NCBI GenBank assembly: GCA_034716535.1
Contig: JAYEJW010000243.1
Span: forward strand, 6,243 to 70,242
Source: Pseudomonadota bacterium
Lineage (GTDB): Bacteria > Pseudomonadota > Gammaproteobacteria > Chromatiales > Chromatiaceae
Length of the DNA stretch: 64,000 nt
Direction: 5' to 3'
Of this stretch, positions 1,293 to 24,186 are shown in pieces. The notes beneath the pieces were generated by a model. That model worked only from the letters and a program-made list of their open reading frames with translations. It did not search any database and was not told the DNA's origin. The translations under genes were made by a program, and so were the position numbers. How positions within the stretch are numbered: the stretch's first letter is position 1; each line of letters begins with the position of its first letter.

Positions 1293-2828
1293 TCAGGTGC
1301 GGTACTGGCCCAAATCCAGTCGGTACTTGGATAGTTTGAGGTAGATCGAACGACTGGTGAGTCTCATATTATTGGCGATTGCGCTCACATCACCGCGGTA
1401 ACGCCTTAGGGAATGCTCGAGGTATCTCATTTCTGCCTGCTCGATAAGCTGGCGTTTGTACTCTTGCCATTCCTGGGCGGGCGGTTCGGCAACATCGGCC
1501 AACGCGGTTTCCGCTTCGATCTCAACATTCAGGGCGATATTCTCAAGAATCTCACCGCTGGCAAACAGATAGCTTCGTTCCAGGACATTCTCCAGTTCCC
1601 GTACATTCCCCGGCCAGTCGTGGGCGCACAATTGCTGCATGACATTAGGGCTCACCGCGACAACCGGTTTTCCATACCGCATCCGCAGTTTCCCAAGGAT
1701 GTGCTCTACCAACCGCGGAATGGCCCCAGGGCTCTCGCGCAACGGTGGGATATGAAGGTTGACGACATTGATACGAAACAAGAGGTCATTCCGGAACTCA
1801 CCTCGCCGCACCGCTTCGCAAAGCGACTTATTGGTAGCAGCGATGATGCGGGCATTCGTTCGCAACACTTGGGTTCCACCGACGCGCTCGTATTTGCCTT
1901 CTTGCAGCACGCGTAGCAGGCGCCCTTGGGCCGATGGGGTGAGCGAGTCGATCTCATCGAGAAAGAGCGTGCCGTCTTGCGCACGCTCAAAATAACCTGC
2001 GCGCCTTTGAAAGGCGCCGGTGAAGGCCCCTTTCTCGTGACCGAACAAGGTACTGTCCACCAACTCCTCGGGAATGGCCCCACAGTTGACTGCGACGAAA
2101 TCTTCCTCGGCGCGACCACTGAGAGCGTGCAGCCGTCTGGCTACCAGCTCTTTGCCGACACCTGTCTCACCGGTGACGAGCACGGTGGCGGGCGTAGGAG
2201 CAACGATATCGATGGCAACCAGGAGGCGCTTGATAGCCGCCGAACAAGCCACGAGCTGAGGCAATTGCTCATGCGTACCCTGCCCCCCAGGAGCACCCCT
2301 GAATCCGGATTCGGAGATATCGCAGTATTCGACACCCGGGCGATTGCGTGCGGTATCCCGGTCCAGGTAGATCGCCAGCTCGCAGTGCCGGGCAATCCCC
2401 TTGCAGTGTCTGTTGATCGCGACCTTGGCGTAACCGAAATTGCGAGCCGCGATGTTACCGAGTATTTTGAAGCCGATTTCGCACAGGCCGGAGTCGAGCA
2501 GTTCCTGGTAGTCGGTCAGGGGACACTCGGTGTTCACCAGTCGCACCGCGCCATTCCCTGCGGACAGGACGCCGGATTTCGCACAGCCACCACAAGCGAC
2601 CCGATCGATCAGGCGAGCATATTCCTTCACCGTCATGGGCCGGTCGAGCAAGTCGGCATCAATACGATATGTTGCTTCCAAGCAGGCGCTGGCGTTCTGA
2701 TCTAGTTGTGACCATTCCGCCGGCCGCCTCCCTTTGCGAACCTTGGTGCAGGCATCCAACAACCCGATTACCATCTCGCGTGACGGCGCTTGGCTACGCC
2801 GCGGACGCAGTTCCGTTATGGTATCCAT
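1293..2828 (-). CDS. Sigma-54-dependent transcriptional activator with Cys-rich V4R-like N-terminal sensor
   Basis: 511 aa. AAA+ RpoN-interaction module: Walker A GETGVGKE and the GAFTGA loop (HEKGAFTGAF). C-terminal Fis-type HTH (VSAIANNMRLTSRSIYLKLSKY). The N-terminal ~190 aa ends in CEIGFKILGNIAARNFGYAKVAINRHCKGIARHCELAIYL, which fits the C..G..G....C..G...C pattern of V4R effector domains in XylR/DmpR-class activators. A purine-rich SD-like tract (AAGGGGAGGA) lies just upstream of the ATG. Confidence 0.85.
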   Translation of the reverse strand: MDTITELRPRRSQAPSREMVIGLLDACTKVRKGRRPAEWSQLDQNASACLEATYRIDADLLDRPMTVKEYARLIDRVACGGCAKSGVLSAGNGAVRLVNTECPLTDYQELLDSGLCEIGFKILGNIAARNFGYAKVAINRHCKGIARHCELAIYLDRDTARNRPGVEYCDISESGFRGAPGGQGTHEQLPQLVACSAAIKRLLVAIDIVAPTPATVLVTGETGVGKELVARRLHALSGRAEEDFVAVNCGAIPEELVDSTLFGHEKGAFTGAFQRRAGYFERAQDGTLFLDEIDSLTPSAQGRLLRVLQEGKYERVGGTQVLRTNARIIAATNKSLCEAVRRGEFRNDLLFRINVVNLHIPPLRESPGAIPRLVEHILGKLRMRYGKPVVAVSPNVMQQLCAHDWPGNVRELENVLERSYLFASGEILENIALNVEIEAETALADVAEPPAQEWQEYKRQLIEQAEMRYLEHSLRRYRGDVSAIANNMRLTSRSIYLKLSKYRLDLGQYRT

Positions 2829-2896
2829 GATCCTCCCCTTGACAGGATCTGGCTGGCACTAGCTGGCGCGCCTGACACGCGGCTGCGAGCAGCCTG

Positions 2897-2933
2897 TTGT
2901 ATTATAAAATTATTATATTTAGATTTAGAAAAA
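2897..2933 (-). promoter_or_regulatory. AT-rich island with two TATAAT hexamers (minus strand); candidate sigma-70 promoter of the activator gene
   Basis: A 37-nt tract of about 90% A+T (ttgtattataaaattattatatttagatttagaaaaa) in an otherwise GC-rich region, 70-105 nt upstream of the activator ATG. On the minus strand TATAAT occurs at 2901-2906 and 2912-2917. No convincing -35 element. Confidence 0.3.
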
Positions 2934-3138
2934 CCCCCGTACTCTTGTCTTTTTTTCTAAGCGTACGCTCGGCGGGTGTTCCCAATGGGGAGTATCGAAC
3001 AACTATCTGAGTGAATCAAGCAGGTATTTCTTGGCGTTGGTGGTACGAACGTACAGGTTGTCGTAAGAACAGACCTTGGCGGTGATCAATCCGGCTGGTA
3101 GCCGAAGCCGAAAGCCACCGGCTTGGCCGGTGAAGTAT

Positions 3139-3855
3139 TCACGACACCGCATCCGCCGGAGGCGTTTCCTCGAGGCTGCCGTTCAGGTAGTCGAGCTCCA
3201 GGGGCGCTATCTGCGTCAACAGCTTGCCCAGCCAGATGTAGAATGGAGTCGGGCAGCTTGCCTCCAGCCGAGCGCCGAACGCCGGTAGCCACCCGACGAG
3301 GTGGCGCTCTAGAAAGTCTCGCTGGGCGAGGAGGTAGCCGTGCAGAAGCTCTCCTTCCTGCTCGTCCCGGGCCTGTGCCTCCTTGAACGCAAGGAAGTGG
3401 AGAAACTGCAACTCCACACAGAGGTGGTCCGGGAGCTCCCGCTTGCCCTCCTCCGGGTTCACCTTCAGGCCAAAGTGTTTGTAAAACTCGCTTAGCCGGA
3501 TCATGTGCCCTGTTCTCTCGACGCCCTTCAGATAGATGCCTTCATAGGGAGGGCAGGGAGGCTCCGGGGCACCGACATCGAAGGTTCCCGTATAGGCCGC
3601 CTGAAAATCCTCGATTCGAACCTTCTCCAGGTCGCGCTGAACCTTGTCCTTGTGACCCGCCTGTTCGTCCACCAGGCTCTGGAGGTGCGGGAGCAGGGAC
3701 AGTTTGTCCCAGAGCTCTGACAGGAAATCCCCGTTCTGATACCGTGCAAAAAGCTCAGGTGTCGGATACCTGAATGATTGAGACAACAAGCTGTAAACCG
3801 CACTCCTGACGGTTGGGTCGGCAGTCATCATGGGTGATGTTGGCAGGTCACTCAT
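3139..3855 (-). CDS. TorD/NarJ-family redox-enzyme maturation chaperone (delta subunit) of the adjacent molybdoenzyme
   Basis: 238 aa, no signal peptide. The N-terminal VYSLLSQSFRYPTPELF and later AAYTGTFDVGAPEPPCPPYEGIYL resemble the TorD/NarJ/EbdD family core. It is the last gene of the alpha-beta-gamma-delta string. Confidence 0.7.
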   Translation of the reverse strand: MSDLPTSPMMTADPTVRSAVYSLLSQSFRYPTPELFARYQNGDFLSELWDKLSLLPHLQSLVDEQAGHKDKVQRDLEKVRIEDFQAAYTGTFDVGAPEPPCPPYEGIYLKGVERTGHMIRLSEFYKHFGLKVNPEEGKRELPDHLCVELQFLHFLAFKEAQARDEQEGELLHGYLLAQRDFLERHLVGWLPAFGARLEASCPTPFYIWLGKLLTQIAPLELDYLNGSLEETPPADAVS

Positions 3856-3961
3856 TTTTATTCCTCTTTCCGTCTGACTTCAGGTTGAGTATAAGCGTCC
3901 GGCTGGCTTGCAGCCGGACGCTCTCGTACCTGCGATAACGTGCCAGGCAGTCAGTCCTGGG

Positions 3962-4882
3962 TCATGGTGCAATGATCAGGGTGCCGAACAATCCGATGAA
4001 CTTACTGCCGTTTCGCTCGTCCCTGTCACCGTCCCAGTTTGCCCAAACCGTTGCATAGGTTCCACCCGCCTCAAGAGTGACCATGTATCCGCCAGGCCCG
4101 ACGTCGGTGGCGTCGGGGTGAGCCGGGTCAGGGTTAGGCGGGCCAACCATGGCCCGCCCCATGATCACCGTCCACCGGTCGTTGCTCCACTCCTGGGCGG
4201 CATGAAACAGGGTCGGGTCATCGGTTTCATCGGTTTCCAGGGTGGTGCCTGCGCCATTGGTGACGATGTTCTCGACCTCGACCTTATCAGGCCGCCAGAA
4301 ATGGAGATTCACTGGGCAGCACCTGGCAAAATCGAAGCCTGGCTCGCCGGGCAGAAGACCATGCTCATCACGCCCATCGCAGCGCATCCCCATGTGGATC
4401 ATGGGCTCACTCGTCTCACCGGGGACACAGCCTGGATAGTCGGATTCCGGGTAGGGAATCATGAGCGCGAGGGCATCGAAGAAACGCGGCACATCCCTCG
4501 CGTTCTCGTCGAACGTCTCATCCTCAAATTCCACCCGGAAGAGTATCTCCCCGCCGTCGTGAATCGATTTGATGGACAGGTGCCGTACCGCTTCAGGATT
4601 TACCTTGGCCCAGTCATCGAACGAGTCCTTGGCATTCGCGCTGGCGAAAACAATATACTCCAGCGGCACGTCGGTCGCCGTCGCCGATGTCCAATCCGGG
4701 TGTGACGGGTTATTCGCCGGCCCAGTGGGATCGGCAAAAGTAAAGCTCCCCACACGCACGGCGTTGACCTGATAGGTATCCGTATCGGTCGGGAAACCAC
4801 TGCCTGTCGTAGGTATGAGCAGGGCTGGGAGGACCAGGCTCAGTGTCAGCGCCTTTGCGATCTTCATAGAGACTCTTTTCAT
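3962..4882 (-). CDS. Gamma subunit, EB_dh-type heme-b protein of a type II DMSO-reductase-family enzyme (Sec signal peptide)
   Basis: 306 aa. Signal peptide MKIAKALTLSLVLPALLIP. It lies 15 nt after the beta subunit gene. Candidate heme-ligand contexts are DALALMIPYP (Met) and ERNGSKFIGLFG (Lys), comparable to EbdC/SerC/DdhC as I recall them. The start could be M1 or M6. Confidence 0.65.
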   Translation of the reverse strand: MKRVSMKIAKALTLSLVLPALLIPTTGSGFPTDTDTYQVNAVRVGSFTFADPTGPANNPSHPDWTSATATDVPLEYIVFASANAKDSFDDWAKVNPEAVRHLSIKSIHDGGEILFRVEFEDETFDENARDVPRFFDALALMIPYPESDYPGCVPGETSEPMIHMGMRCDGRDEHGLLPGEPGFDFARCCPVNLHFWRPDKVEVENIVTNGAGTTLETDETDDPTLFHAAQEWSNDRWTVIMGRAMVGPPNPDPAHPDATDVGPGGYMVTLEAGGTYATVWANWDGDRDERNGSKFIGLFGTLIIAP

Positions 4883-4896
4883 GGTTTACCCCTCCG

Positions 4897-6105
4897 TTAT
4901 CCCAAGTACAGTTGCAGCCGATCGGACTCTTCGCGTGCCACGAGGATGTCTACCAGCGCGGATGATCCGCCGTTCGCCACCTTGGCCCGCTCAGTCTCCA
5001 AGATCCTGAAGATCTCTTTGATCCTCCTCATGCGTTGGCGAAGTGTCTGGTTCGCGTCGTCGCCGAACATTTTCGCCAGCAACTTGATCGGAATACGCTG
5101 GCTATTGGGTACCAGCCGGCCATTTCGCCGAAACCCGGGTGGGCTCAGCGGTGGGATGTAGAAGAGGTTCGGCGCCGTGCCGAACTCGGGGTGCAAGCGC
5201 AGCGCGACCCCCCAAACGTCGACCAGTTGGTTGACGTTTTTCGCCAGGTTCTCCGCCGCGTTCGGGCCCAGGTCGGGATCGTAGAACCCCGCGAAGCGGA
5301 TGCGGCCGACGCACTGGTTAAAGCAGAAGTTTTCCCGCGGTGGTTGGAGGTTGTCGGGACCCGTATCCTGCTCGATCCTCGGGTAGCAGAAGATACACTT
5401 CTGCGACTTCTTCTTGGCCGCATTGTAGTAAACCTTCTTATACGGGCAGGCCGCGACGCAGCGGCGGTAACCTTCGCAGCGGTCCTGGTCGATCAGGACG
5501 ACTCCATCCTCTTCCCGCTTGTATATCGCGTTCTTGGGGCATGCGGCCAAGCACGCGGGTTTGGTGCAGTGGTTGCAGAGTCGAGGCAGGTAGAAGTAGT
5601 GGGTATTGGGGTACTTGCCGGCCCCGACATCTTCATCCCAGTTACTCGAATAGGCATCGGGGCCGTCGGGCGACGGAATCGGAACCATCTGGCTCTCTGT
5701 CGCCGCGAAGGTATCACCGACCGGAAATGTCCCAGGGGGCTCATCCACAGCGGAGCTTCCAAGCACCTCATCATAATTGTATTCCCAGGGAGCGCCATAA
5801 TCCTCAACGATGCCGGGGAGTGGGCCGAGCGGATCGACCCTCCAATCGTCGGGGTCTGTGGGGTTTGTGAACCCCCCGCCCAGTTCAGGAGTAAATACGC
5901 CTCTGGGATAGCCCCTGCCGGGCATGGTTTCGACATTGTTCCAGTACTGATACAACAGCCCTTCGGGGTTGTCGGGGAGGTTCTCCAGCGGAATATCGAT
6001 TCTGCCGTCCGTCCACTGGGTCTTGCATGCCATGGTGCAGGTATGACACCCAATGCACTTGTTGAGGTCGAATACCATTCGAACCTGTTTTTCAATTGTG
6101 GCCAT
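4897..6105 (-). CDS. Beta subunit, four-cluster Fe-S protein (NarH/EbdB/SerB-like)
   Basis: 402 aa. Cys clusters: CIGCHTCTMAC, CNHCTKPACLAACP, CEGYRRCVAACP, CIFCYPRIE...CFNQCVGRIRF. The C-terminal region LHPEFGTAPNLFYIPPLSPPGF parallels NarH/EbdB. Confidence 0.9.
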   Translation of the reverse strand: MATIEKQVRMVFDLNKCIGCHTCTMACKTQWTDGRIDIPLENLPDNPEGLLYQYWNNVETMPGRGYPRGVFTPELGGGFTNPTDPDDWRVDPLGPLPGIVEDYGAPWEYNYDEVLGSSAVDEPPGTFPVGDTFAATESQMVPIPSPDGPDAYSSNWDEDVGAGKYPNTHYFYLPRLCNHCTKPACLAACPKNAIYKREEDGVVLIDQDRCEGYRRCVAACPYKKVYYNAAKKKSQKCIFCYPRIEQDTGPDNLQPPRENFCFNQCVGRIRFAGFYDPDLGPNAAENLAKNVNQLVDVWGVALRLHPEFGTAPNLFYIPPLSPPGFRRNGRLVPNSQRIPIKLLAKMFGDDANQTLRQRMRRIKEIFRILETERAKVANGGSSALVDILVAREESDRLQLYLG

Positions 6106-6168
6106 ATCGTTCTCCTAGCTCTTTAACATTTGGTTGAACCGAGATGTTGACTCGCTAAGGCCTTATGC

Positions 6169-9051
6169 TTAAACCTTGCGGACGTCCACCCGAGTATCCT
6201 TCTGGTTTCCCGTAGGACCCCAGTAGTTCAACCGGAATGTGAGCTGTCCGTACTTACCGGCGAGCTGGGTCGGGTTGATGCGGACATGGGTCGGCGCCTG
6301 CCATCCCGTATTGGACTGGTAGCGCTCCCAGCCGTGGTACATCAACGCCATCCCCTCCGGTACTCGTGGCGCAATATTCAGATGCACCTGGACGGCTCCA
6401 TGATCATTGAAGACCTCGACGAGCTCGTTGTCCCGCATGCCGCGGCGTTCCGCTTCCTTGGGGTTCAGATAGACCACTGTCCGGCCGCGTTGCAGTCTTA
6501 GCTGGAACTTGGCATCGCGCCAGGTGGAATGGATGGACCAGCGGCCGTGCGGCGTACTCCAGCGCAGCGGATAGGGGTCGGCATCCACCGTACCCTTGTA
6601 CGTCGGCAATTCCTCGCCAAACTCATTCAGATACCAATCGTGATCGATGTAGAACTGCTGGCGGCCAGTCATGGTCCCTATGGGCTCGAGCTCGTCAAAC
6701 ATTCTCCCGTGGGTGTGATAGGCCACGCCCTCCTGCAGGCTGGTGGTCCAGGCCTCGCTGGTCGCTCCGAAACGGTAGGGTTGCTTAATGATTGAACCTG
6801 CGGGTTGCGCATTCAGGTGGGCGTCATCCACGAACCTGTGCTCTCCGTCGAGGGTCATTGCAATACCGCCTTCGGAACCATTGGTCTCGACGGCATTGTC
6901 CAGGATGAACTGGCACGCATCCTTGTCGTCTCCAACATCGCCCCCCTCGACGTTCAAGGTATCGAAGTCGTCCAGGAGGCTGCTGAAATCCCTCGTAATG
7001 GTTGTGCCGTTCGGCACCTGGTCGTCAAACACGAACCCGGTGGCCGCGAGCGCATCGGCCAGGGAGCGCCAGATCTGCCAGTCGCTTCTGCTCTCGTGCA
7101 GGGTGTCGATGACGGGCGTGAACGGAATGGCGTAGGTGTGCAGGTCCGTGGTGTTGAGGTCCCACTTTTCCATCATGCTGGCCGCAGGGAGCACAATATC
7201 GGCAAAGGTCGCCGTGGTATCCATGCGCAGATTGACGTCAACGATCAGATCAATCTTCGGCAGGAGGTTGTTTACCAGATCATTCCAACCCTTGGCCTGA
7301 TTGATATAGTTGGCGCCCCAGACGAACAGGACCTTGGGCACTCTGCCGTTGTTGAGGGTGCCTTCGGGCCACAGCGGCATCCAGCCCTTGCCGACACTCT
7401 CTTTGATGTACTCATTGATGGATCGCGGATAGAGATTGTCGACATCGGATTCGGCCTCGCCGTGGACATAGGTCCACAGGGTCGTGTTCTGGAAGCGCTG
7501 GGCAGGACGGCCATGGGGGAAGGCGAGGTGGAACCACGCCTCCTCCGGCCAGATCTTCTCCTGGCCGACATAGTGGTCGAAACCGGTACCCGGCTTGCCG
7601 ACGTTCCCGGTCAGGGCCAGCAGGAGGATCTGGGCGCGGTTGGTAAGGTCGTTGTGGAAATAGTGGTTCGTCCCTGCGCCTTCGATGATCCGGGCCGCCT
7701 CTGCTGTTGCAAACTCTTCCGCCATCTGGACGATCAGTTGCGCGTCCAGATTCGTGATGCTGGCGACTTCGCTAATCGTAAAGGGTGCCAGTTTCTCGAC
7801 GAGCCGTGAGAAGACGGTGGTGACCTCTGTACTCGTGGGCATGTCGTTGCCGGGCCAAACGGTGAAGGTCCCTTCCAGTGCCGGATCGATTGCTCCCAGA
7901 GCCAGGGTTTGGTTGGGACTTCCCAGGGTTCCGGGGGCCTCCACTGGCCCGCCCGTGTTGATGTCCCACAGGTAGTAGGTATTAAACCCGACTGGATTCA
8001 CAGGACTGCCATCCGCGTTCAGTCGGTCATCCTTGCGCAGGAACTTCCCGGTATCGGTTCGGACCAGGAAGGGCATGTCGGTGAAGTGCTTTATGTAGTC
8101 GATATCATGCAGGCCGTTGTCGATGGCGTATTTGGCCATGCCGAGGCACAGGGCGGCGTCCGTGCCCGGCGCGATGGGCGCAAAGATATCGGCGTGGATC
8201 GCGGTCGGGTTATAGTCCGGGAAGACCGCGATGCTGCGGGTCCCTCGCATGCGTCCCTCGGTGTAGTAGTGGGCATCGGGGATACGGGTCTCGAGCAGGT
8301 TTGCCCCCATCAGCATGATCAAGGTCGAGTTCACCCAGTCTGCGGACTCGCAGGCATCGGTCTGAATCGCCCAGGTCTGCGGTTGGCCCGGAGGCAGGTC
8401 GCAGTACCAGTCATAGAAACTACAGGCCACGCCGCCGATCAGGTTGGCCAACCGAAAACCGCCTGCCACGGTAATATGGTGCTTGGCAGGGATGGCGGCA
8501 AAGAAGGTGACAGCATCCGGGCTGTAAGGCATCTCAGAACCGGCATTGTCCATCCATGGCGTGTCAATGGTATCTACTATCTTATTGGCGATATGGCTGA
8601 GGGCCTCTTCCCAGGTCACTCTTACCCACTTCCCTTCACCGCGCGCCGTGCCCGGTTGTCGCATCAGGGGATACTTGGTCCGCTGGGGCCCGTACACGTA
8701 TTCCTTGTGGTTTGCGCCCTTCTGACAGCCCCTTGGGTTGTAGACGGGCAGCACATTGTTGATCTCCGGATAATCCGCAAACTGCTCCTCCTTGAAGACG
8801 ACATTGTTCTTGACGTACGCCTTCCAGGTACAGGAACCGGTGCAGTTTACCGAGTGCGCCATACGGCCGAAGTAGTCAAAGGTCCATTGCTCCCGGTAGA
8901 AGTCCTCCCAACTCCTATAGGGATAAGCCCCCATCGGGTCCAAGACGGGGAGCAAGAGATCGAGTGCCAAGAGATCTTTGGCAGCGAGGACCCCTGCTGC
9001 AGCCGCTGCGGTCTGCAAAAATTGACGTCGGGTAATTTCTTTCATAGCCAT
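6169..9051 (-). CDS. Alpha (molybdopterin) subunit of a Tat-exported type II (Nar-like, Asp-ligated) DMSO reductase family enzyme; substrate unknown
   Basis: 960 aa. Twin-arginine signal EITRRQFLQTAAAAAGVLAA. FS0 motif HSVNCTGSCTWKAYVKN...RGCQKG. A NarG-type block SFYDWYCDLPPGQPQTWAIQTDACESADW contains the Asp Mo ligand. SD GAGGAGGAG lies 5 nt upstream of the ATG. Confidence 0.9.
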   Translation of the reverse strand: MAMKEITRRQFLQTAAAAAGVLAAKDLLALDLLLPVLDPMGAYPYRSWEDFYREQWTFDYFGRMAHSVNCTGSCTWKAYVKNNVVFKEEQFADYPEINNVLPVYNPRGCQKGANHKEYVYGPQRTKYPLMRQPGTARGEGKWVRVTWEEALSHIANKIVDTIDTPWMDNAGSEMPYSPDAVTFFAAIPAKHHITVAGGFRLANLIGGVACSFYDWYCDLPPGQPQTWAIQTDACESADWVNSTLIMLMGANLLETRIPDAHYYTEGRMRGTRSIAVFPDYNPTAIHADIFAPIAPGTDAALCLGMAKYAIDNGLHDIDYIKHFTDMPFLVRTDTGKFLRKDDRLNADGSPVNPVGFNTYYLWDINTGGPVEAPGTLGSPNQTLALGAIDPALEGTFTVWPGNDMPTSTEVTTVFSRLVEKLAPFTISEVASITNLDAQLIVQMAEEFATAEAARIIEGAGTNHYFHNDLTNRAQILLLALTGNVGKPGTGFDHYVGQEKIWPEEAWFHLAFPHGRPAQRFQNTTLWTYVHGEAESDVDNLYPRSINEYIKESVGKGWMPLWPEGTLNNGRVPKVLFVWGANYINQAKGWNDLVNNLLPKIDLIVDVNLRMDTTATFADIVLPAASMMEKWDLNTTDLHTYAIPFTPVIDTLHESRSDWQIWRSLADALAATGFVFDDQVPNGTTITRDFSSLLDDFDTLNVEGGDVGDDKDACQFILDNAVETNGSEGGIAMTLDGEHRFVDDAHLNAQPAGSIIKQPYRFGATSEAWTTSLQEGVAYHTHGRMFDELEPIGTMTGRQQFYIDHDWYLNEFGEELPTYKGTVDADPYPLRWSTPHGRWSIHSTWRDAKFQLRLQRGRTVVYLNPKEAERRGMRDNELVEVFNDHGAVQVHLNIAPRVPEGMALMYHGWERYQSNTGWQAPTHVRINPTQLAGKYGQLTFRLNYWGPTGNQKDTRVDVRKV

Positions 9052-9105
9052 GTCGTCTCCTCCTCGTTGTCAGGGCTTCGCGAGCCCTTTCTCAAGAAAG
9101 TGCCC

Positions 9106-9120
9106 GCAATTCCCGCGCCA
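9106..9120 (-). promoter_or_regulatory. Sigma-54 (RpoN) -24/-12 promoter of the molybdoenzyme operon
   Basis: The minus strand reads TGGCGC-GGGAA-TTGC. This matches the consensus TGGCAC-N5-TTGC with exact spacing and conserved GG/GC dinucleotides. It lies 55-69 nt upstream of the alpha ATG (9051). A sigma-54 activator gene flanks the operon. Confidence 0.6.
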
Positions 9121-9170
9121 TGAACGAATTACCTAAGATTGTTAATGAGTTACGCTTGGCTCAAGCGGGT

Positions 9171-9317
9171 GAAACTCCACCGCACTGAAGTTTCGTGTGT
9201 CGGCCGCAAACTATCGTCAAAGCCAAAACGTACTAATAATGAAGGAGTTGCCTCGTTGAAACGGGGTTTCACAAGGGAAATGGGGTTTCCCGGCCAAGCT
9301 AGCCGTCTCACCGAAAC
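9171..9317. promoter_or_regulatory. Field of GAAAC/GTTTC inverted repeats; candidate enhancer (UAS) sites for the sigma-54 activator
   Basis: GAAACT-N12-AGTTTC (9171-9194), GAAAC-GGG-GTTTC (9258-9270), GGAAA-TGGGG-TTTCC (9276-9290), and GAAAC again at 9313-9317. GGGGTTTC is repeated 19 nt apart. The field is located 50-200 nt upstream of the RpoN promoter. An AT-rich tract (9127-9150) between them could be a bending site. Confidence 0.3.
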
Positions 9318-9507
9318 GTGGGCAGATTTGACTCTTGTCAAAGCGTCCCCCCGGCCTACCGTCAGGCCAAGATGAAACGCATGGGTACGGGGCCGGAGCT
9401 GGGCCGTTCGCAGAAGTGTTTCTTAAACCCGCTGCCAGCCCTGCGGCGGCATCAGGATTTGGGGGGTGGGTGGGTTTCCAGCAAATGCCCCGGGAATCTT
9501 GTGGCTC

Positions 9508-9542
9508 AAAAAAAGAAAGCCCGCCGATTGGCGGGCTTTTTT
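9508..9542. terminator. Bidirectional rho-independent terminator (ends the SCP2 gene transcript on the minus strand)
   Basis: AAAAAAA-G-AAAGCCCGCC-GATT-GGCGGGCTTT-TTT: a perfect 10-bp stem with a 4-nt loop, an A-run on one side and a T-run on the other. It lies 21 nt downstream of the SCP2 stop. Confidence 0.8.
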
Positions 9543-9562
9543 CTGCCGGACGGAATCGTCGC

Positions 9563-9976
9563 TCAGCCGAGCTCGTCCGCGCCGATCTTCTGCATCAGGC
9601 CGAAGCTCTTGACGAAGGGGCCGGCCATGCGCGGGTCCTTCATCATTGCCTTGTAGTCACCGACCTTGAACTTGAGCTTGCCGGTCGCATAGGAGGTGCC
9701 CAGCCCCATCATGCCGATGCCCTTCTTCACCCACTTGAGCCAGTCATCCATATCGGCACGCATATCCCAATCGGCGGTCTCGCCGTTCCAGTCGCCCGCA
9801 CGTGTACACACGCCGTTTTCAACGACAAAGACCCCGCGGGGGTTGTCCTCGTTCTTGAACCCGCAGCAGATCACGGAGTTGAAACCGATCTCGGCCAACT
9901 TGTCCTTGACCCCGGGATCGCCGTTCCAGGCGTCCATGAGCTGCTTCATCCACTCGTCGGAAAAAAGTGCGGCCAT
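9563..9976 (-). CDS. SCP2 (sterol-carrier-protein-2-like) lipid-binding fold protein
   Basis: I take the internal start MAALFSDEWMKQL at 9976 (SD GGAGGA 8 nt upstream). The upstream 63 codons of the track ORF are Arg-rich junk. The C-terminal GKLKFKVGDYKAMMK...F is SCP2-like. Confidence 0.65.
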   Translation of the reverse strand: MAALFSDEWMKQLMDAWNGDPGVKDKLAEIGFNSVICCGFKNEDNPRGVFVVENGVCTRAGDWNGETADWDMRADMDDWLKWVKKGIGMMGLGTSYATGKLKFKVGDYKAMMKDPRMAGPFVKSFGLMQKIGADELG

Positions 9977-22878: not shown

Positions 22879-24186
22879 CTACGGCGAAATTTCCTTGAGG
22901 TAGTCGGGATTGCCGAGAACGCTCCGATCGATATTGCACTCGTCGGGTTGAAGAACTCTTGTGATCTTGAGCTTCTTATCGGGCTTCCCGGAGAAATCGG
23001 CAAGGTCCACGTAGTGTGGAGGCACGGTCCGGTGCTTGGCGTTCTTGAATACAAGCACCAACGGGCGGAACTCGTTCTTCGGGTTGGTCCGGATGACCAC
23101 ACCAATTCTCCCGTCTGTGAGCTGTATGATGCTGCCGGGAGGGTATAGACCGAGCGCTCGGAGAAAAGTGGACACCAGTTCGCTGTCATAAAGGTCGCCG
23201 CTCGAGGATTGTAAGATCTTGATGGCCTCTATGGTGGTCCTGCGGTTGCTGTACACGCGGTCGCTGGTGACCGCATCGAATGTGTCCGCGACCCCGGCGA
23301 TCCGCGTGAACAGATCCAGCTCATCTTCCTTCAGGCCGCAGGGGTAGCCTGATCCGTCCATCCGTTCGTGATGAGAGTACGCCACGTTGATCACCGAGCT
23401 GCTCGCTCCTTGTGAGGAGATGAGTATGTCCCGACCTTGCGCCGCGTGCATCTTTATGATCTGAAACTCTTCTTGGGTCAGCCGTCCGGGCTTGTTCAGA
23501 ACCTCCTCCGGCGCCCGAATCTTGCCCACGTCATGCAGCAGCCCGCCCATGCCCAACTGCTCAAGTCGTGTCTTCGGCATGCCGAGACGATGCCCGAGCA
23601 ACATAGACAGGATCCCTACATTGATGCTGTGCCGAGAAGTGTACTCGTCTTTATCCCTAATGCTGCTCAGGAGCAGCATGGCGTCCGCGTTGCGGGTGAT
23701 CTGGTCGGCGCAGGCCGTAACGACCTCCTTGACCGCGACCATATCGACAGTATGTCCACCGCGAACATCGGTGATTAGGGTACGCACGAAGTCTGTGGTC
23801 TCACCGAAGGGGCGGCGAGCGGCTTCCACCGATTCGATAGCCTCTTTCACCGACCGATGGGTGGGCATTCGCCGCGCCAAACTACGCAGGAGCCCCCCCA
23901 ACTTACCCTTCCGGCGCGGGTCGGGCCCCCTCGGGCGAGGCTCGTTCGCGGCGGAGCTGATGCCTCGCGGCGGAGTGGGTTGCGTTAGCCTTGGCGTGCC
24001 GCCCTTCTCCGTGTCGACGTACACGTAAGAACAGGTCTCTTGGACGGCTTTGATGTCCTCGGTCGTCCTTAGGGGAAAGCCCTGAAATTGAAAGGGCGAC
24101 TCCAACCAAGGACGGTCGAGCTCGCAGACGTACATGCCGATCTCGAGCTGCGAGACGGGCACCTTGATCCTATCGGCCGACGACAA
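22879..24186 (-). CDS. HD-GYP domain cyclic-di-GMP phosphodiesterase with DUF3391 N-terminus
   Basis: N-terminus VPVSQLEIGMYVCELDRPWLESPF (DUF3391-like). HD (LLHDVGK) and HHERMDGSGYP motifs. Confidence 0.85.
   Translation of the reverse strand: MSSADRIKVPVSQLEIGMYVCELDRPWLESPFQFQGFPLRTTEDIKAVQETCSYVYVDTEKGGTPRLTQPTPPRGISSAANEPRPRGPDPRRKGKLGGLLRSLARRMPTHRSVKEAIESVEAARRPFGETTDFVRTLITDVRGGHTVDMVAVKEVVTACADQITRNADAMLLLSSIRDKDEYTSRHSINVGILSMLLGHRLGMPKTRLEQLGMGGLLHDVGKIRAPEEVLNKPGRLTQEEFQIIKMHAAQGRDILISSQGASSSVINVAYSHHERMDGSGYPCGLKEDELDLFTRIAGVADTFDAVTSDRVYSNRRTTIEAIKILQSSSGDLYDSELVSTFLRALGLYPPGSIIQLTDGRIGVVIRTNPKNEFRPLVLVFKNAKHRTVPPHYVDLADFSGKPDKKLKITRVLQPDECNIDRSVLGNPDYLKEISP

Follow-up and report, generated by a model that had tools for sequence, protein, structure and literature searches.

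We analysed a 64,000-nucleotide stretch of contig JAYEJW010000243.1 from a gammaproteobacterium of the Chromatiaceae (hereafter the window), and within it a cassette of five minus-strand genes that encode a three-subunit molybdoenzyme, its chaperone and a sigma-54-dependent activator. A first-pass annotation of the same DNA had reported these five genes, and the list of open reading frames (ORFs) from which we read them agrees in position and strand. Families were assigned from Pfam and NCBIfam scans, and the genes and their domains (lengths in amino acids, aa) are as follows.

6169-9051, minus strand: alpha (catalytic) subunit, 960 aa, with molybdenum bis(molybdopterin guanine dinucleotide) (Mo-bisMGD), the FS0 [4Fe-4S] cluster, an Asp Mo-ligand and a Nar-type pocket signature
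8962..9051, minus strand: twin-arginine (Tat) signal peptide of alpha, MAMKEITRRQFLQTAAAAAGVLAAKDLLAL, from Pfam TAT_signal and the motif TRRQFLQ
4897-6105, minus strand: beta subunit, 402 aa, with four Fe-S clusters and five loop insertions relative to PcrB and EbdB
3962-4882, minus strand: gamma subunit, 306 aa, an EB_dh-type haem-b protein with a Sec signal and Cys-flanked loop insertions
3139-3855, minus strand: delta, a maturation chaperone of the NarJ/TorD family, 238 aa (Nitrate_red_del, TIGR03482)
1293-2828, minus strand: sigma-54 enhancer-binding protein (the activator), 511 aa (Sigma54_activat, GAFTGA)
2256..2828, minus strand: N-terminal sensor domain of the activator (aa 1-191), probably of the MetOD1 family, with a Bet3/V4R/H-NOX-like fold
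1755..2249, minus strand: AAA+ sigma-54 interaction domain of the activator (aa 194-358; Pfam)
1323..1445, minus strand: C-terminal Fis-type helix-turn-helix of the activator (aa 462-502), a weak HTH_8 match

The alpha subunit matches Pfam Molybdopterin, Molydop_binding and TAT_signal, the last under its cut-off (20.7 bits, E 3.9e-4; cut-off 22.7) and with the TRRQFLQ motif read directly. Its FS0 motif, HSVNCTGSC (H-x3-C-x3-C) plus C74, is invariant in all 62 members of the clade described below, and its Asp Mo-ligand block, FYDWYCD, aligns with F164-Y165-...-D170 of PcrA. By these matches and motifs, alpha is a Tat-exported, Asp-ligated enzyme in the family of type II dimethyl sulfoxide (DMSO) reductases. 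This architecture, with Tat export of alpha and Sec export of gamma, is that of the first-pass annotation, and both the family matches and the motifs it quoted are borne out.

Compared with all solved structures, alpha scores 687 bits against the perchlorate reductase PcrA, 453 against Escherichia coli NarG, 326 against the ethylbenzene dehydrogenase EbdA and 244 against Kuenenia NxrA. By tblastn it is 44% identical to the periplasmic NarG of Haloferax mediterranei, an enzyme that has been studied biochemically, and 33% identical to the chlorate reductase ClrA, while on a trimmed alignment the identities are 47.5% for Haloferax NarG, 45% for PcrA, 38% for E. coli NarG and ~36% for ClrA and DdhA. 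The first-pass annotation had leaned towards hydrocarbon or aromatic chemistry, that is, an anaerobic hydroxylase like Ebd, Cmd or S25d, or else a dimethyl sulfide (DMS) dehydrogenase, with a V4R/XylR-type sensor mediating induction by a hydrophobic ligand. That lean fails on the scores, alpha being far closer to PcrA and NarG than to EbdA, whose score is less than half that of PcrA and whose equivalog model (NF042978) gives alpha 352 bits against a cut-off of 2000. Further, DdhA falls in another clade with different pocket residues, and no hydrocarbon or aromatic catabolic genes were found near the cassette. The EB_dh-type gamma subunit would suit such an enzyme, as would a sensor fold in the broad Bet3/V4R/H-NOX class (PMC5847659), but with the sensor evidence given below we regard this explanation as largely refuted and its chances as very slim.

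The remaining subunits are also of recognizable families. Beta scores 377.5 bits against TIGR03478 (cut-off 480.7), gamma matches EB_dh, and delta matches Nitrate_red_del as well as TIGR03482 (140 bits; cut-off 152.3). Beta and gamma had been described as unusually long, and they are: beta has 402 aa against 333 in PcrB, 352 in EbdB, 328 in ClrB and 352 in Haloferax NarH, and gamma has 306 aa against 214 in EbdC and 239 in ClrC. The single acidic insert to which the length of beta had been credited did not hold up, however, as the extra residues form five short loop insertions scattered along the protein when it is compared with PcrB and EbdB, and every cysteine group is retained. In gamma, Met164-Gly165 and Lys294 are invariant and align with the Met/Lys haem-b ligands of EbdC and Kuenenia NxrC (PMC8387239), which makes Met164 and Lys294 candidates for the haem-b ligands here.

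Among the positions singled out in work on PcrA and NarG are a substrate Asn beside FS0, a post-FS0 Trp that is His in PcrA, a Lys/Arg after the fourth FS0 Cys, a Phe-Tyr gate pair, the Asp Mo ligand, a Mo-proximal His, and the gate residue Trp461 of PcrA, which is Glu in nitrate reductases (PMC8301774, PMC6650914, PMC8387239). We tabulated 12 cofactor, gate and pocket positions across the alpha homologues. The window protein reads H-N-C-C-W-C-K-F-Y-D-H-E, identical to E. coli NarG at 11 of 12 positions with a K/R swap at the twelfth, and all the Nar-type active-site residues (N, W, F, Y, H and E, the Glu standing at the PcrA-W461 position) are present. The periplasmic NarG of Haloferax differs at one position (Asp for His at 426) and PcrA at two (H42, Trp in alpha, and W461, Glu in alpha), the aromatic gate F164/Y165/W461 of PcrA thus being incomplete in alpha. 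Five differences separate alpha from the ClrA/Ser-like proteins (including G35, V164, T/S165 and K426, with a gap at 461) and five from Rhodovulum DdhA (including F42, I164, F165 and R426, again with a gap at 461). All 62 members of the alpha clade share the signature of the window protein.

These residues bear on the possibility that the enzyme is a general oxyanion reductase for respiration of chlorate, perchlorate, selenate or bromate, in the manner of Pcr, Clr and Ser. Its attraction is that no solved structure scores higher than PcrA (687 bits, 45% identity) and that periplasmic Nar enzymes reduce chlorate efficiently (PMC8301774). Indeed PcrAB of Azospira oryzae (PDB 4YDD) is the best structural relative, 45% identical over nearly the full length, periplasmic and Tat-exported, with the same fold and cofactor ligands. 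Nonetheless the Trp461 gate and His42 of PcrA are replaced by Glu and Trp, and the third gene of the window cassette encodes an EB_dh haem-b protein. Chlorite dismutase (cld), which is adjacent in both cld-linked reference clusters, was found neither in the 64-kb window nor in any orthologous locus. The Clr/Ser/Ddh group of chlorate reductase, selenate reductase and DMS dehydrogenase likewise shares a soluble periplasmic alpha-beta-gamma enzyme with a haem-b gamma subunit and a delta chaperone, but it forms a separate clade with 100% support, is 33-37% identical, has other pocket residues and is arranged A-B-D-C. On this evidence a general oxyanion reductase is quite unlikely.

Two neighbour-joining trees of alpha (87 and 95 sequences, ~905 columns, 200 bootstraps) both placed it in a clade of 62 sequences with 100% bootstrap support. 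The members come from gammaproteobacterial metagenome-assembled genomes (MAGs), Desulfobulbaceae, Anaeromyxobacter, Syntrophobacteraceae, Nitrospirota and Thiodiazotropha, as well as Geobacter pickeringii (two tandem copies) and three Methanoperedens-like archaea. Outside it lie PcrA, Haloferax NarG, E. coli NarG, an acidobacterial group (48-50% identity) and the Clr/Ser-like and Ddh proteins, which form their own 100% clade. Alpha thus does not nest with any biochemically characterized nitrate reductase. Its closest relatives are all MAGs, a scan of genome contigs yielded six loci, again all from MAGs with no cultured organism among them, and no nitrate phenotype of G. pickeringii was found in the literature searched.

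The archaeal members deserve separate mention. Nitrate-dependent methane oxidation has been credited to a NarG-NarH-NarJ-Orf7-HCOII-NapH cluster (PMC4683180), and Leu and colleagues grouped the main Methanoperedens enzyme with NxrA-like proteins (PMC7327174). In the three Methanoperedens-like loci of our clade (L098, L099 and L100; 8001-13250 in each), alpha-beta-EB_dh-TorD adjoin citrate synthase. We had considered these homologues as a physiological anchor for nitrate reduction and withdrew the idea, their neighbourhoods being unlike the published nar cluster (PMC4683180). They share the A-B-C-D order and the pocket signature with the window cassette (56-60% alpha identity; P0057, P0062 and P0064), but have a short beta (344-346 aa), a short gamma (153-216 aa) and no sigma-54 activator. 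A SLAC1-type transporter gene lies near the cluster in L098 and L099.

The versions with long beta and gamma fall together in a subclade of 16 (89-92% support) inside the 62-member clade. Orthologous loci have beta/gamma lengths of 393/307 (L001), 377/290 (L004), 399/308 (L007) and 380/319 aa (L003), and the long subunits are a trait of the subclade. Tandem operons, one with long and one with short beta and gamma, occur in G. pickeringii and two metagenomic loci (L003 10001-21335; L005 4100-15897; L007 4532-15976), and both paralogues keep the Nar-type pocket. Genes for giant fn3 proteins and PEP-CTERM proteins adjoin these tandem operons, and in L005 the first copy is frameshifted.

Gene neighbourhoods of orthologous cassettes add a further line of evidence. 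In two different gammaproteobacterial MAGs (alpha 80-81% identical), alpha-beta-gamma-delta are followed by moaA and the activator, and then by narL and narX. The NarL exceeds its equivalog cut-off (290.7 bits; cut-off 250) and the sensor kinase is NarX/NarQ-like (420 bits). One of these narXL-linked loci carries, on the other side of the cassette, ubiT and ubiU, genes of oxygen-independent ubiquinone synthesis. In L001, which holds an 81% orthologous cassette, the ubiU/ubiV-like peptidase U32 genes (6378-8224) are called as three fragments, which could be frameshifts or assembly errors.

The gene order A-B-C-D, as noted in the first-pass annotation, is common to the cassette and the nar cluster of H. 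mediterranei, and differs from the A-B-D-C order of clr. The likeness to the Haloferax enzyme (pNarGH with the Orf7 EB_dh cytochrome b and NarJ) goes further. Both have a Tat-exported alpha, the order alpha-beta-EB_dh-TorD, an Asp ligand, the H-x3-C-x3-C FS0 motif, the pocket residues N, W, K, F, Y, D and E, and the Met/Lys haem ligands of gamma. On the other hand, Haloferax pNarGH is 44-47% identical, lies outside the 100% clade of the window protein and has Asp for His at PcrA position 426, and its cluster includes Rieske and cytochrome b genes, a gamma with a C-terminal membrane anchor and no sigma-54 activator. E. coli NarGHI shares the 11 of 12 tested positions and a NarJ-type chaperone, but is cytoplasmic, lacks a Tat signal and is held by the NarI membrane anchor rather than served by a soluble EB_dh haem protein; its NarG, at 1247 aa, has large insertions (38% identity).

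Taken together, these data suggest, with a probability of roughly 0.55, that the enzyme is a soluble nitrate reductase of the periplasmic Nar type ('pNar'), whose genes lie on a mobile cassette under the control of a sigma-54 promoter and a MetOD1-type activator. The substrate, which had been called unassignable, is more assignable than that given the nitrate-reductase pocket, the PcrA/NarG-like scores and the adjacency of narXL in relatives, although the earlier caution stands in so far as the 100% clade holds no characterized enzyme. By analogy with the family, the delta chaperone would hold apo-alpha in the cytoplasm during insertion of Mo-bisMGD and FS0, alpha and beta would be exported jointly through Tat on the twin-arginine signal of alpha, and gamma would be exported by Sec and bind one haem b through Met164 and Lys294. 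We infer that electrons would pass from the quinol pool to the gamma haem b, through the four beta clusters to FS0 and on to Mo, where nitrate would be reduced to nitrite. As the cassette encodes no membrane anchor, the route from quinol to gamma would probably run through cytochrome bc1 and soluble cytochromes.

Several observations weigh against this interpretation. The alpha score against the type II DMSO-reductase model TIGR03479, a full-length match (8-958), is slightly under the cut-off (968.6 bits; cut-off 984.75), the nearest characterized enzymes are just 44-47% identical, and no characterized enzyme falls within the 100%-supported clade. The archaeal members do not change this, since theirs is a second cluster, separate from the nar cluster linked to NapH and HCOII. 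All trees were built by neighbour joining, and their deeper nodes are weak (16-52%). Sub-functionalization is hinted at by the tandem paralogues of Geobacter and other loci, whose signatures are identical. In the window itself, narXL, narK and moaA are not beside the cassette. Moreover, Nar-type enzymes are promiscuous, accepting chlorate, bromate and selenate, and nitrite oxidoreductases (NXRs) share the same pocket, so that the residue signature fixes neither the substrate nor the direction of the reaction.

With regard to direction, the enzyme might work oxidatively, as a periplasmic NXR or another dehydrogenase that feeds cytochromes. The pocket is common to nitrate reductases and NXRs, a haem b with Met/Lys ligation usually has a high potential, examples being Ebd, Ddh and Kuenenia NXR (PMC8387239), and the Joint Genome Institute annotates some clade members as 'nitrate reductase / nitrite oxidoreductase'. 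The known periplasmic NXRs of Nitrospira, anammox bacteria and Nitrotoga, however, belong to a different lineage (PMC6050957), and Kuenenia NxrA scores just 244 bits. Many of the hosts are anaerobic (Geobacter, Syntrophobacteraceae, Desulfobulbaceae and Methanoperedens), and orthologous cassettes adjoin narXL and anaerobic ubiquinone genes. We therefore consider an oxidative role decidedly improbable.

Upstream of alpha we identified three elements.

9120-9106, minus strand: sigma-54 -24/-12 promoter element TGGCGCGGGAATTGC, or TGGCGCGGGAATTGCG over 9105..9120
9169..9194, minus strand: second conserved element GAAACTTCAGTGCGGTGGAGTTTCAC, GAAATTTCAC in orthologues, a putative second activator site
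9255..9291, minus strand: conserved palindromic element GGGAAACCCCATTTCCCTTGTGAAACCCCGTTTCAAC, a putative upstream activating sequence about 165 bp upstream of the -12 element

The -24/-12 element, which the first-pass annotation had proposed as an RpoN promoter, starts 69 nt upstream of the alpha start codon. The pattern as such is not enriched in the window (23 matches with two mismatches; 26.8 expected). In an alignment of the upstream regions of the window and four orthologous loci, however, TGGYRY-N5-ATTGC is conserved while the spacer is variable, and the palindrome is conserved as GAAATCnCATTTCACTTGTGAAATnnGATTTC (window 9291-9255). A -24/-12 match within 100 nt of the alpha start codon was present in five of six loci that carry the activator, Thiodiazotropha (56% alpha identity) among them, and in none of the six promoters from loci that lack it (Fisher's exact p ~0.008 by our own calculation); TGGYRY-N5-TTGC is found 57-95 nt upstream of the ATG in six loci. 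This positional conservation, the co-occurrence with the activator and the presence of GAFTGA together make the promoter credible despite its lack of enrichment, and from these sequence comparisons control by sigma-54 and the adjacent activator is well supported. We infer that the two upstream repeats are binding sites of the activator. Transcription would then start from the sigma-54 promoter and need the adjacent activator bound at both repeats, the activator being switched by its N-terminal three-cysteine MetOD1 domain upon a signal. In L004 (4155-4933), which holds a 78% orthologue, the activator is upstream of alpha on the same strand. A good -24/-12 match, TGGCTCGCTCCTTGCC, occurs only once there, 411 nt ahead of the annotated start codon, which points to either a long leader or a start called in the wrong place.

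The activator itself has a clear Sigma54_activat match (E 5.7e-64), AAA_lid_14 and GAFTGA, while its HTH_8 match (17.2 bits) is under the cut-off of 22, the orthologues scoring higher. The MobR model matches only the AAA+ part. Its sensor had been taken for a V4R small-ligand domain. Residues 1-196, however, gave no Pfam match even at E<=10, V4R (PF02830) and XylR_N (PF06505) included. A HMMER search of 1.84 billion representative proteins with the sensor domain returned only 48 clusters. Scanning 46 homologues gave MetOD1 (PF18546) matches in 35 (best E 2.9e-16). The 46 include 22 sigma-54 activators and several histidine kinases, and V4R is not among the 25 most-matched families listed for them. 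The MetOD1 score is 46.7 bits for P0122 (41% identical) and 20.1 bits for the 80% orthologue (cut-off 23.8), and the window sequence gives no match. Conserved features are C102-P103, C116, IAARNFGYAK (126-135) and C149.

Galperin and colleagues reported MetOD1 from archaeal response regulators, as an 'output' domain whose function is unknown; they noted its resemblance to H-NOX, V4R and ATC hydrolase, and a cluster of three cysteines that it has in common with PoxR and MopR in their V4R domains (PMC5847659). An AlphaFold model of the sensor (25-sequence alignment; pLDDT 82, pTM 0.78) is confident, and its best PDB fold matches are Bet3/TRAPPC3 (E ~1e-3, TM about 0.43-0.5), with H-NOX at rank 49. 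MopR, PoxR and DmpR are absent from the top 50 fold matches, and a profile search of PDB sequences found nothing significant and none of these three. Judged by its homologues, the sensor probably belongs to MetOD1, a distant relative of V4R and H-NOX, so that the V4R proposal survives at the level of the superfamily (the Bet3/TRAPP and H-NOX fold) but not of the family. XylR, DmpR and MopR resemble the window activator in their sensor-AAA+-Fis-type HTH layout, in a related alpha/beta sensor fold and in the three-cysteine cluster (PMC5847659), yet the window sensor lacks an XylR_N or V4R match and a link to aromatic catabolism. A sensor outside the V4R/XylR family says nothing about hydrocarbons, and the inference of hydrocarbon sensing fails with it.

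What the MetOD1 sensor may perceive was approached through its relatives. A metagenome scan found 328 relatives, and we examined 80 loci (L018-L097), almost all of which encode full MetOD1 sigma-54 activators. Only one of the 80 adjoins a type II molybdoenzyme gene. Around the other MetOD1 activators, a Fer4 plus beta-carbonic-anhydrase-like gene occurred at 44 loci, DUF938 at 40, SDR at 33, DUF1326 at 22, PpoB2/DUF2182 at 21, MerC at 11 and an SQR-like flavoprotein at 10. Such gene content hints that the activator family at large responds to a signal connected with metals or sulfur, and a resemblance of the sensor to the sulfide-responsive activator FisR is speculation. In a tree of 70 MetOD1 activators, the six linked to molybdoenzymes form an exclusive clade (bootstrap 100/100), and by this measure they are a dedicated, co-evolving subfamily; the neighbours of other MetOD1 clades accordingly say little about the operon-linked ones. 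Relatives have both NarXL and the activator, so the latter probably senses something other than nitrate itself.

This raises the alternative that a Nar-like pocket serves a substrate other than nitrate, such as a sulfur, selenium or metalloid oxyanion, with the MetOD1 domain sensing that substrate or a related stress signal. It would fit with an alpha clade that lacks a characterized member, with the three conserved cysteines kept in the sensor, with the presence of NarXL besides the activator in relatives, with hosts that include sulfur oxidizers (Thiodiazotropha and Chromatiaceae), and with the MerC, DUF1326, PpoB2/DUF2182, SQR-like and Fer4 plus beta-carbonic-anhydrase-like genes beside other MetOD1 activators. 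The operon-linked activators are, however, separate from the clades beside those metal and sulfur genes, the pocket matches NarG at the tested positions (11 of 12, K/R at the twelfth), and the adjacency of narXL points to nitrate or nitrite; we therefore hold a non-nitrate substrate to be unlikely. A related proposal concerns the regulator more than the substrate: the MetOD1 activator subfamily may have co-evolved with the Nar-like clade to sense a non-nitrate signal (for example thiol-reactive sulfur, a metal or an NO-type signal), with the enzyme in a role that differs from classical nitrate respiration, such as coupling to sulfur oxidation. We offer this tentatively, as a rather unlikely possibility.

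The proposed mobility of the cassette is supported by its composition and its edges. Its G+C content is ~58%, against 65-72% in the flanks on both sides, and DNA similarity to the 90-94% identical relatives L016 and L014 ends at the operon edges (9045 and 3126). The G+C dip and these ends together support a transferable cassette, in keeping with the island-like setting noted in the first-pass annotation. The flanks differ even among the 90-94% identical relatives, and in L014 the sequence past delta is unrelated to the intergenic region of the window. In the window the cassette is flanked by ordinary genes (exopolyphosphatase, RhlE helicase, lipoyl synthase and Rho), and for calling the left neighbour 'imuB' the sole basis is a 17-bit match to a Y-family polymerase.

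Just upstream of the operon is a 136-aa ORF (9563-9973, minus strand), followed by a strong hairpin and T-run terminator at about 9505-9545. We had considered it as an SCP2/UbiT protein and dropped the idea, as it matches no family and does not resemble the UbiT encoded beside the orthologous cassette in L001. Further away, 22879-24186 (minus strand) encodes a response regulator of HD-GYP type that weakly matches a 'NosR family c-di-GMP phosphodiesterase' model (95 bits; cut-off 400).

The enzyme is an uncharacterized member of the type II DMSO-reductase / periplasmic Nar family, and the regulator is the more original element of the cassette. If the pNar reading is true, a periplasmic nitrate reductase of Nar type is present in several bacterial phyla and in some Methanoperedens archaea, and because standard annotation calls it only a 'molybdopterin-dependent oxidoreductase', the nitrate-reducing potential of metagenomes would be under-counted. 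As for MetOD1, it appears here on the input side of a bacterial sigma-54 activator, for which a target promoter is defined and the upstream repeats are conserved, and this activator-promoter pair offers a tractable system for learning what MetOD1 senses.

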